Of a stretch of DNA of 64,000 bases, positions 44,994 to 47,756 are shown piece after piece. Below the pieces are notes generated by a model. The model did not search any database and was not told the DNA's origin. It saw nothing but the letters and a program-made list of their open reading frames with translations. Position numbers and translations under genes: made by a program. The number at the start of each line of letters is the position of its first letter. Within the stretch, counting starts at the first letter, position 1. Source of the stretch: Thermodesulfobacteriota bacterium (lineage in GTDB: Bacteria; Desulfobacterota; Desulfarculia; JACQYL01); NCBI GenBank assembly GCA_963675595.2, contig CAXXLZ010000002.1, forward strand, positions 1,152,001-1,216,000, written 5' to 3'.

Positions 44994-45229
44994 CTCGAAC
45001 CTCCTTCATGAAATAGGATTGATCGGACCTTTTCGCGCAACGCGAGGATTACCCTCAACCGCCGCCGCTTTCCCACGGTTCCCCATACCATCGGCCCGAC
45101 ATTTGTACGGAATCGCTTCCAGAATAGCCGAGGGGGTTTCGAACTGTCAACCGGGGAGCCACCACGAGGCAAATTCCAAGACCGTCGCCGGCCTACGAAG
45201 ATTCCTTCGGATGGGACTCGACGAAAAGT

Positions 45230-47253
45230 GTAGAGTAGAGCGCTGACGGCAAAGGAGTTAAGGCCGACTTTTAGTGACGCCTCGCTGCACGCAGCTACTA
45301 CGTGTCGTCTAAACTTACTTACCGGCAGCGCCCCCTCGTCGAACCGGACGTGCGGATTTCCCGCATCCGGCTCTCCGATGATCTTTCAGCGACAAGGCAT
45401 TCGCAAGAAGTTGACGGCTTTCTCATGCAGGTAGACCAACCCTTTCGCGCGCAGCGCCGCATACAGCGACGGCCCGTCCAGGTGTTGACAGCGCCGGTGG
45501 CTCCTCGTCTTCATGAATCGACGAAACCGGTTGTGGACAAACCAGTCGATTTTCTTGAACGCAACCCGCGGGTACCCAAACTTGAAGTATTGGCCCCAGC
45601 CCGTCAGGAATCGGTTCACCCGTTGGATGACCTCCTCCAGCGGCGCTTGCACCTTCCTCAACGTCAATGCTCGCAGCCGCTCACGCGCCCGGTGCAGGGC
45701 CTTGGACGAGGGAACCACGTTCAAGTAGACACCGGGGCCGAGCACGCTGCGGTCGTAGCGGAAGGTAAAGCCCAGAAAGTCCAGGCTTCCTCTCGGTTGG
45801 TTCAGATTCACGATGCTGGTCTTGTCTCGATTCAGCGTCAGCCCGAGGGACCCGAGAGTCTCTTCGGCAAAATCCATGATCCGAGGGTTCATGCGCCGGA
45901 CCAGGATCACCCAATCGTCGGCGTACCTGACAAGGTGGGCTTTCATGGTCCGCCCTGGTCCACCCGGACCATGGAACTTCTTGTCGAACTCGTGGAGATA
46001 GATGTTGGCCAACAGGGGAGAAATCACCCCTCCTTGAGGTGTCCCTTTCTTCGGTCGGGTCACTTTCCGGACTCCATTTACTTCTTCCACCACCGGACTT
46101 TGCAGCCACATACGGATCAGTTTCAGCACCGATCGGTCCGCTATCCGCCGCTCCACGCACCGCATGAGCGGTTCATGGGGTATGGTGTCGAAGTAGCTCG
46201 TCAGGTCCGCGTCCAGTACCTCCCGATACCCGTCTTTCAGGGCCTGCCGGATCTCCGTCAACGCCCCGTGGGCGTTCCGGCCCGGACGAAATCCGTGCGA
46301 GCAGTCCTCGAAGTCCGCCTCGAAGATCGGTTCAATCAGGAGCAGCACCGCCATCTGGACGATCCGATCCCTGATGGTCGGTATGCCCAGAGGCCGCTGC
46401 TTGCCGTTGGCTTTGGGGATGTACACCCGTTTCACCGGCAAGGGTCGATAGGTCTTCCCCTTCAGTTCCCGCTGGATGAATTCCAGAAGGACCTTCACCC
46501 CATCTTCCTTTGCCTCGATGGCCCGGATGCTCACTCCATCCACACCGGCCGCACCTCGATTGGCGCGTACCCGTCTCCACGCACTCTCCAGAACATCCCG
46601 ACGATATACGCGATCGTACAACGCATAGAATCGAAACTCCGGCTCTTGCTTGGCCTTGAGGCCCAGTTTCATCCGAAGAAGGGAGACTTTGGCGGCCACT
46701 CCATTTTCCGGCTTGACCCGATCCGTAGTGGGACGTTTTCCGTCCAAGCGGTCCTTCCTCCATTCGTCCGAAACGCGATCAAAGTCCTGCCCCTTGGCTC
46801 CATCCTGTTTCCAGGACTTCTTCGCTACTATGGGCAAGTCCGACTCCCGGCCGGGACCGTGCAGCGGGTTATGTATTCCCCGCTGCCGTTTGGACTCGGG
46901 CTACCTGCCGCCCTGCCCGTCCCGCCGGGTCTCCCGGGTTCCCCGGCGCTCCTTCGAGTACATGCCGTCTCCAAACACCCCGGGCGGCACGGTGCGACGT
47001 TCCTGTTTTCCCATCGCACCATTGGCAGGTTTCCCCATATGCTTGGAAGGTCACCGCCGCCATCCGTGTAACGAGGCCGAAGCGAGTTCACTTGCGTTAC
47101 GGCCTGCACTCTATCTGACCTTACGGCCTTTTCCGGCCCGCTTGACGCCTCGGGTTACCCCTGCGCGCCGGGCCGGCGACTTCGCGGTGAACAGGCAATT
47201 ACCGCGGGCGGAACTTTCATCCGCCAGGATCGCCGGAGCTTTGCCCGGCGCAC
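45230..47253 (-). mobile_element. Full-length group II intron (AGC triad, no endonuclease domain)
   Basis: 5' GTGCG at 47253; domain V GAGAGCCGGATGCGGGAAATCCGCACGTCCGGTTC; domain VI ending CTACTCTAC (3' end could be 2 nt further). Confidence 0.9.
45386..46837 (-). CDS. ltrA: Group II intron reverse transcriptase/maturase
   Basis: [37 protein letters not shown] domain. Confidence 0.96.
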
Positions 47254-47756
47254 AGGCATTCACGCGGAGGATTTTAATAAAGTCCCTCCCGAGCACCCCG
47301 TCAAGACACCTCAGACAGGCCCCACCGACTTGGGCGGAGAGGCTGAGGAGAAATCAGGATTCCTCACTAATTCCCACCGGTCCTTACCTTTGCTGAATCG
47401 GCGGGAATACGCTCAAGTTCGGCTTCGTCCCCCTAATGACGGGGCACGCACAAGAGGATCCGGGGTGATGTCGTTCCCCGTTTATCCTGTGAATAAGAAC
47501 GACGAAAAAGGTTTCAGCATGCCCTTGCCGCGCGTAGAATACATGCTCGGGAAACATGACCCACAGGGGACTCCCCTTGCTAAACAAGCATCGTCTGTCA
47601 CTGTTCACAGGGTGGGTGGGGAGACCGATTGCCGGACGCATTGGTACGGAGCCTTCGACAAGGGCGCCCGAATCCGGAAATCCACTCATGGCATGAAGCC
47701 TCTCCGCCGGAGGCGGTGAGGAACGCTTTCAACCTTTCCGAGTCAGTGGGAGTCCC

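Follow-up and report, generated by a model that had tools for sequence, protein, structure and literature searches.

The window analysed here is a stretch of 64,000 nucleotides (nt) from a Thermodesulfobacteriota bacterium (GenBank assembly GCA_963675595.2, contig CAXXLZ010000002.1, positions 1,152,001 to 1,216,000 of the forward strand). On its minus strand, a group II intron that encodes a reverse transcriptase (RT)/maturase in an open reading frame (ORF) interrupts a copy of a dispersed hairpin repeat, which we call family A. The features of this locus are listed below in window coordinates, with exon positions counted from the insertion point (written as ^ in the text), exon-binding sites of the intron abbreviated as EBS and intron-binding sites of the 5′ exon as IBS.

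45230..47253, minus strand: complete group II intron, 2024 nt; 5′ end GUGCG at 47253, 3′ end CUCUAC at 45230
47092..47226, minus strand: domain I core; Rfam RF02003 group-II-D1D4-4, 63.4 bits (gathering score 49)
47064..47068, minus strand: EBS2 CACGG, in an internal loop of domain I; pairs with exon positions -12..-8
47039..47044, minus strand: EBS1 AAGCAU, located in a terminal loop of 11 nt; pairs with exon positions -6..-1
45386..46837, minus strand: RT/maturase ORF of 483 amino acids (aa) in domain IV; YADD in the translation, without an endonuclease domain
45230..45375, minus strand: match to domains V and VI, Rfam RF00029, 48.3 bits, above the gathering score
45341..45373, minus strand: domain V with AGC triad, AC bulge and 5-nt loop GAAAU, from the Rfam alignment and folding
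45230..45340, minus strand: J5/6 linker and domain VI (about 105 nt, unusually long), from folding and sequence
47254..47347, minus strand: 5′ exon, a family A copy (model positions 2-97), nhmmer E 6e-15
about 47266-47289, minus strand: second hairpin of the occupied repeat, from sequence
47261-47265, minus strand: IBS2 of the window copy, GCGUG
47254-47259, minus strand: IBS1 of the window copy, AUGCCU
45228..45229, minus strand: start of the 3′ exon, AC, the final two conserved positions of the repeat profile

The ends of the intron were fixed by blastn comparison of the intron copies with one another. They replace the borders given in an earlier note on this DNA (45225-47305), in which the 3′ end ran 5 nt too far and the 5′ end took in part of the exon hairpin; the exon junction that this note had read, ...GGGAGGGACTTTATTAAAATCCTCCGCGTGAATGCCT^AC, is present. 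The RNA begins with GUGYG, has a domain V and a bulged A in domain VI, and ends with AY, as is expected of a group II intron. Domain V comprises 33 nt, from GAGC to GUUC, one position fewer than the Rfam model. The predicted branch-point A is bulged at 45236, 7 nt before the 3′ end of the intron, and the GAG-CUC pairing around it is our own reading of the sequence. An extension of domain VI of about 90 nt is common to the closest relatives, in which the 3′ alignment covers 165-174 nt (L004-L008). The encoded protein matches RVT_1 (E 6.4e-35) and the maturase X domain GIIM (E 6.6e-14), and it scores 398 bits with TIGR04416 against a cut-off of 300. The domain search of the protein detected no other domain, in particular no endonuclease domain, and the C-terminus extends only 35 aa beyond GIIM. 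Its closest match among solved structures is the class C GsI-IIC RT (E 4e-66). Taken together with the further copies and the contigs that skip exactly 2024 nt (see below), the Rfam matches and defined ends bear out the reading of this element as a real and complete intron.

To describe the repeat, a profile made from nine copies was run with nhmmer for one iteration on the 6.79-Mb genome, which consists of three contigs (C1, C2 and C3). There are 329 family A matches (244 on C2, 69 on C1 and 16 on C3), seven of them in the window. The consensus of about 100 nt forms two hairpins, the first around CCGCCGAAGGCGG and the second on a stem of 13 base pairs (bp). The latter stem is paired in 77-97% and shows AT, GC and CG alternatives at four positions, and is thus itself maintained. 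Conservation spans ...CCGTGAATG, drops over the three bases that precede the insertion point and recovers at AC (profile positions 99-100, 1.4-1.5 bits). Since it ends there (positions 101-103, 0.13-0.14 bits), the intron is placed 2 nt inside the 3′ edge of the repeat. By a crude coding test, 266 of the 329 repeats lie wholly outside long frames supported by G+C content at third codon positions (GC3), and such frames make up 44-57% of the contigs. In addition to the occupied copy, the window contains the following family A repeats.

22926..23024, plus strand: uninterrupted repeat, E 1.1e-26, with the end GTGAATGCCCAC
4106..4201, plus strand: uninterrupted repeat, E 7.4e-11
35824..35910, plus strand: uninterrupted repeat, 3′ part, E 1.3e-06
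36976..37043, minus strand: uninterrupted repeat, 3′ part, E 1.6e-09
57382..57466, minus strand: uninterrupted repeat, absent from the earlier note, E 8.5e-10
47697-47737, plus strand: partial repeat, absent from the earlier note, found with nhmmer

The four uninterrupted repeat ends quoted before (23009-23020, 35895-35906, 4185-4196 and 36980-36991) lie exactly where they had been placed. Family A also has 19 matches, with ends such as GCGAATGATTAT, in the genome of a member of a different genus within the same taxonomic family. This genome also carries a relative of the intron with 67% nucleotide identity, whose 5′ exon has the CCGCCGAAGGCGG hairpin about 70 nt upstream and terminates in CCGTGAAATCCGTGAAATCCG^.

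A blastn search of the genome for further copies of the intron found seven full-length copies, of which five are identical and two have one substitution each compared to these, and two ORF-less derivatives of 922 nt, which are about 97% identical to the full intron and differ from each other at seven positions. Five of the seven full copies are hosted by family A repeats, all at the same repeat position 2 nt inside the 3′ edge, where the hairpin is followed by CCCC(C)GTGAATG(C/T)(C/T)T^ or GTGAGTGCTC^. Both ORF-less copies are preceded by CCCCGTGAATACG(T/C)^AC, and their sites match merely the last 17-25 nt or so of the repeat. The remaining two full copies are found at AGGTGAATGCTT^CA and AAGTGCATGCTT^CA within otherwise unrelated sequence, one antisense inside a TrkH gene and the other antisense and 4 nt upstream of an AraC-family ORF. 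The expectation that the copies would share one site was thus largely borne out, holding for five full copies and not for two. The copy upstream of the AraC-family ORF (L094, G000:C2:729463-731486) has an A>G change at intron nt 1903, the first base of the AC bulge of domain V, and may be crippled by it.

The intron and the repeat end are matched by base pairing. The repeat end reads CCGUG-A-AUGCYU^AC, in which EBS2 pairs with the first block and EBS1 with the six bases before the insertion point; the loop positions of both were taken from a consensus fold of seven sequences. When domain I was aligned with that of five close relatives (proteins 67-72% identical, from Desulfobulbaceae, Nitrospirae and other metagenome-assembled genomes (MAGs)), one variable six-base block complemented the final six exon bases in all five. 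In each of these relatives, all of which have a 5′ exon, EBS1 and IBS1 form 6/6 Watson-Crick or G-U pairs, as listed here.

Window intron: EBS1 AAGCAU; IBS1 AUGCUU is the perfect complement, AUGCCU in the window copy
L008: EBS1 AUCCGU; IBS1 ACGGGU
L004: EBS1 AAGUUG; IBS1 CAACUU
L005: EBS1 AUCUGG; IBS1 CCAGAU
L009: EBS1 AAUUGU; IBS1 ACGGUU
L006: EBS1 AACCGA; IBS1 UCGGUU

The ORF-less derivatives follow the same rule with a different sequence, their EBS1 being ACGUAU and their exon ends AUACGU (6/6 pairs) and AUACGC (5/6). EBS2 is CACGA in most relatives, with a partner at -12/-11..-8 (CCGUG or YGUG), and one compensatory change was found, UACGA in L005 opposite exon CUGUA (at -8). Exon position +1 is A in all close relatives, and all nine intron sites in the genome have CC at -14/-13. 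The EBS loops thus do pair with the repeat end, which the earlier note had set as the check on its reading, and EBS1 covaries with the exon in 5/5 relatives and in the ORF-less copies; such EBS/IBS pairing, like the RT/maturase ORF, is characteristic of a mobile group II intron. Taken together, these results make it very probable that the intron is an endonuclease-free, IIB-like retroelement of class E/F, recently active, that retrohomes into the 3′ end of family A repeats. As separate observations on the relatives, a tandem 9-10-nt motif stands directly before the intron in many of them (L013, L018, L026, L039, L042, L050 and L089; for example ...CCGTGAAATCCGTGAAATCCG^), and in these the final exon bases together with the intron GUG look like the IBS2 motif, an arrangement reminiscent of the alternative 5′ splice sites described in Ge.ur.I1-1 of Geobacter. 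In L046, from a Bipolaricaulota MAG, the 5′ exon reads ...CTCCTCTACTCTAC and then 9 nt, so that only these 9 nt separate the intron from the 3′ end of another intron copy upstream.

The intron is IIB-like and best fits class E/F; going by its features, it is probably class F in the broad sense, a class said to have been defined by Simon et al. in 2008. Its protein has no endonuclease domain, and its domain V has a 5-nt loop instead of a tetraloop, both of which are class E/F characters (the loop as given in PMC3753933). In the part of Nagy et al. 2013 (PMC3753933) that deals with class E/F, the ribozyme is 450-700 nt long, compared to 572 nt for the window intron without its ORF, and the 5-nt loop, the missing endonuclease and the 3′ splice site AC are features in common. 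From the same part, Ge.ur.I1-1 (class F) and the window intron both have an IBS2 of the CGUG(U) type. In the sections on these class F introns there, no dispersed-repeat homing site like that of the window intron is reported for them (PMC3753933). The intron protein shares 45% identity with one encoded by an intron on plasmid 1 of Nitrobacter hamburgensis X14, and the domain V of that plasmid intron is nearly the same. Ni.ha.I1 and I2 of N. hamburgensis were placed in class F group g3 (Toro and Martinez-Abarca), and the matched copy would be one of these two. In contrast, class C introns lack EBS2, have a 3-4 bp EBS1/IBS1 and insert at terminators or attC sites (in passages of PMC1702495 and PMC3753933 for EBS2 and IBS1), and the intron studied here has a 6-bp EBS1, an EBS2 of 4-5 bp, an AGC triad and a two-helix domain V, so the earlier conclusion that it is not class C stands.

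We counted pairable sites in an intron-less copy of the genome, defined by GTG at -10..-8 and at least 5/6 IBS1 pairs. There are 2056 such sites genome-wide and 45 of them (2.2%) are in repeats, compared to five of the seven full copies, a 33-fold excess or so over the pairing expectation (binomial P = 1.0e-7 for at least 5/7 insertions in repeats). Hence, insertion at the conserved end of the repeat, proposed from the window sequence, is beyond chance across the 329 repeats, and pairing by itself is insufficient to account for the preference. Additional determinants are likely; contacts made by the protein, the hairpin in single-stranded DNA or a combination of the two could play this role. 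An excess above the prediction from EBS pairing would also be expected if the intron targeted DNA in the manner of class C, with the stem-loop itself recognised, a short IBS1 and the sequence match to the repeat end being secondary. The five repeat-borne copies are 10-12 nt downstream of a 13-bp hairpin, the best structural match of the protein is a class C enzyme, and in a Terriglobia MAG 7/7 copies of a distant relative lie directly behind a hairpin resembling repetitive extragenic palindromic (REP) elements. Class C introns likewise insert just past a stem-loop in intergenic DNA, in many copies and without an endonuclease (passages of PMC1702495 and PMC4424553). However, the 6-bp EBS1 and the EBS2 exist and covary with the exon, and these, with the AGC triad, set the window intron apart from class C, as does the occurrence of its sequence-specific sites without the repeat: the two non-repeat sites have CC..GTG.ATGCTT in common and no hairpin abuts their insertion point. 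In 35 non-redundant relatives (40 loci before identical exon ends were removed), folding of the 45 nt that precede the intron is not better than that of two nearby control stretches (-9.45 versus -9.21 and -10.23 kcal/mol; P 0.44 and 0.66), and a clade-wide hairpin preference was rejected as a general property. We therefore regard class C-like targeting as decidedly improbable here and keep to EBS-guided retrohoming with additional determinants.

The distribution of the copies could instead have been shaped after insertion, if homing followed ordinary EBS/IBS pairing and insertions outside repeats were harmful and lost. The repeats are largely intergenic (266/329), and the non-repeat copies disrupt TrkH or split an AraC-family ORF from its upstream region, which indicates that an off-repeat insertion can carry a cost. 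On the other hand, the copies are identical or one base apart, which points to a recent burst that left little time for selection, and the two potentially harmful insertions are still there; a very large loss would be demanded to turn 2.2% expected into 5/7 observed. Selection may contribute to the repeat preference, but it is unlikely to be its sole cause given the near-identical copies and the persistence of both harmful-looking insertions, and we consider loss of off-repeat copies an improbable explanation of the pattern as a whole, although less so than class C-like targeting.

Intron-free forms of the locus were sought in the contigs of four public runs (library type unrecorded), which were compared with window positions 44700-47800. 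In runs X2 (organism B) and X5 (organism C), one contig each joins 45229 directly to 47254 and skips exactly 2024 nt; in X5, this contig has at least 255 matching bases per side and a depth equal to that of the flanks. Both runs also contain the intron beside other hairpin repeats, with loose ends at 47264. The joined form represents an empty-site allele or else a spliced transcript; on both readings, it defines the borders and demonstrates an intact repeat that lacks the intron. The repeat was thus present before the intron. This speaks directly to the idea that the repeat is no element of its own but exon sequence that the intron has spread as a co-mobilised 5′ flank, for which the position of the 3′ edge a mere 2 nt past the insertion point could be cited. 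It is contradicted by the intron-skipping contigs, which retain the repeat at the window locus, and 324 of the 329 repeat matches are intron-free. Moreover, the repeat is found in another genus with different end variants, and its copies are about 80-95% identical (BLAST, one repeat copy against the others) compared to near-identical intron copies. We hold that origin of the repeat to be barely conceivable, and the pre-existing repeat as the target of the intron is retained. Separately, a contig from run X11 connects 47264 with 47697 (side of 25 nt) and links the occupied repeat with the partial copy at 47697-47737, perhaps because repeats have recombined or because the DNA of another strain is arranged differently.

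Given the near-identical copies, the intron would have been active recently, and their orientation was compared with the direction of replication. Cumulative GC skew places the origin near C2:3.04 Mb and the terminus near C1:1.22 Mb. The sense strand of the intron is the G-rich (leading-sequence) strand in 8/9 copies; since this strand is the template of lagging-strand synthesis, such an orientation is expected for insertion there. The bias comes from nine non-independent copies (one-sided binomial about 0.02) with the origin located by skew alone, and it is suggestive of a preference for the lagging-strand template. The same preference is stated for RmInt1, an intron that lacks an endonuclease, in the abstract of PMC8914252.

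RmInt1 of Sinorhizobium meliloti (class D) is also alike in having no endonuclease domain, in retrohoming by EBS/IBS pairing and in using a multi-copy element as its homing site (passages of PMC8914252, PMC4615759 and PMC5894124). It differs in its target, a transposase-bearing insertion sequence (IS) and not, as here, a non-coding hairpin repeat of about 100 nt in about 330 copies, and it belongs to another lineage, the window intron having the 5-nt domain V loop. Multi-copy elements as homing sites are thus known, from RmInt1 in IS and from nested introns in Methanosarcina (sections of PMC4424553). For Pseudomonas putida KT2440, a table of Tobes and Pareja 2006 lists 'Group II intron 2/9, 22.2%' among REP-associated mobile elements (PMC1525189). 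In that passage of PMC1525189 the association is minor (2/9) and comes without a pairing analysis, and the window intron is found in 5/7 cases at one fixed repeat position with matching EBS1 and EBS2. This entry was the only one returned by a literature search on group II introns with targets of the REP type or in miniature inverted-repeat transposable elements (MITEs), most subscription journals being outside its scope; within the same scope, no report was found of a IIB-like intron with EBS1 and EBS2 matched to the end of a dispersed hairpin repeat, a second EBS1 variant and an empty site.

The proposed mechanism is as follows. The excised intron RNA with its RT/maturase would read one DNA strand, pairing EBS2 CACGG with CCGTG at -12..-8 and EBS1 AAGCAU with ATGCYT at -6..-1 where the first base of the 3′ exon is A. 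The RNA would then reverse-splice between -1 and +1, 2 nt inside the repeat edge. Because the protein has no endonuclease, replication forks presumably provide the primer for synthesis of complementary DNA on the lagging-strand template, and the ORF-less derivatives with their altered EBS1 are presumably mobilised in trans.

Several points weigh against this account. With two of the seven full copies at unrelated sites, homing is not exclusive and not always safe, and both of these copies have a perfect IBS1 yet only 3/5 IBS2 pairs. IBS1 is imperfect (5/6) in four of the five repeat-borne copies, with an A-C mismatch at -2 in three; in these four, IBS2 has 4-5/5 pairs, and the fifth copy has an IBS1 of 6/6 with one G-U. 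When repeat ends were counted by motif anchoring, 198 repeats had a recognisable end and 67 of these had at least 5 IBS1 and at least 4 IBS2 pairs. Five of the 67 are occupied, which leaves empty 62 repeats that are paired at least as well as the least-paired occupied one. The class is a probable one, assigned from features, the joined contigs could be of either origin because their library type is unrecorded, and the strand bias carries the limits given with it. Finally, splicing and mobility are predictions from sequence.

The earlier note had further described the repeat as a REP element or MITE that serves as a multi-copy safe homing site. Homing into a multi-copy repeat was upheld; the safety is qualified by the two gene-damaging copies, and a safe site may be proposed on the grounds that 266/329 repeats are outside long GC3-supported frames. 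Neither derivation of the repeat was supported. A system of REP elements with their associated tyrosine transposase (RAYT) was rejected since none of the three PF01797 genes of the genome has a family A copy nearer than about 3.2 kb, and no copy was found within 6 kb of two of the three. A MITE derived from IS200/IS605 was rejected as well, with no significant match of the repeat model in or beside an IS200-like copy (best E 6). Rfam holds no known RNA family for family A, the best chance match scoring 19 bits against gathering scores of at least 68. Two loci of this genome were seen during these comparisons. L003 (G000:C2:3348653-3351901) has an ORF of 199 aa for a RAYT-like Y1 transposase, around which overlapping frames encode ...NAEPQLG..., which suggests that a different REP-type repeat family flanks this gene. 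L001 (G000:C1:1661550-1664900) contains at about 1375-2000 an IS200-like tnpA (PF01797, 126.6 bits) within an apparent gene for an FtsH-type AAA protease, the same protein continuing on both flanks.

Elsewhere in the window, a cobalamin riboswitch lies at 21428-21607 (minus strand, 89.1 bits) and a tRNA gene at 49124-49197 (plus strand, 72.3 bits). The genome also holds a second, unrelated family of group II intron RTs at G000:C2:914729, 1644056, 4283737 and 4286298 and at C1:1431123, two copies being 2.5 kb apart; it gave five weak matches (53 nt, 83%) inside shared repeats of more than 4 kb.

Bacterial group II introns persist by selecting low-harm sites. The relevant part of a review (PMC4424553) distinguishes three habits of targeting, which lead to long homing sites, to terminators or to attC sites. 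We can tentatively raise, as a possibility that we would not yet expect to hold, that homing into dispersed palindromic repeats is a fourth such habit, a recurrent and co-evolving strategy of the class F-like lineage in which EBS2 (target CGUG) is kept, EBS1 is retuned to the variable triplet at -3..-1 of the repeat end and a hairpin extruded on the lagging-strand template would aid recognition. The two EBS1 variants in one genome and the 33-fold or so excess in repeats speak for it, as do the relative behind a family A-like hairpin in the other genus and the 7/7 copies behind a REP-like hairpin in the Terriglobia MAG. The finding itself is an intron outside class C that homes into the conserved terminus of a hairpin repeat, non-coding and present in about 330 copies. 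Within a single genome and its sister strains, one can follow how EBS and IBS pair and covary, and one finds an EBS1 variant that suits another variant of the repeat end, what may be an empty-site allele and two gene-damaging off-targets. For practical use, such introns could provide ribozymes of the IIB-like type that are both small and active, together with reverse transcriptases, for targets that can be programmed. They would also offer a natural system for the way in which a retroelement and a repeat shape one another, for the share of a hairpin in RNA-guided targeting and for the use of replication forks by an endonuclease-free intron.

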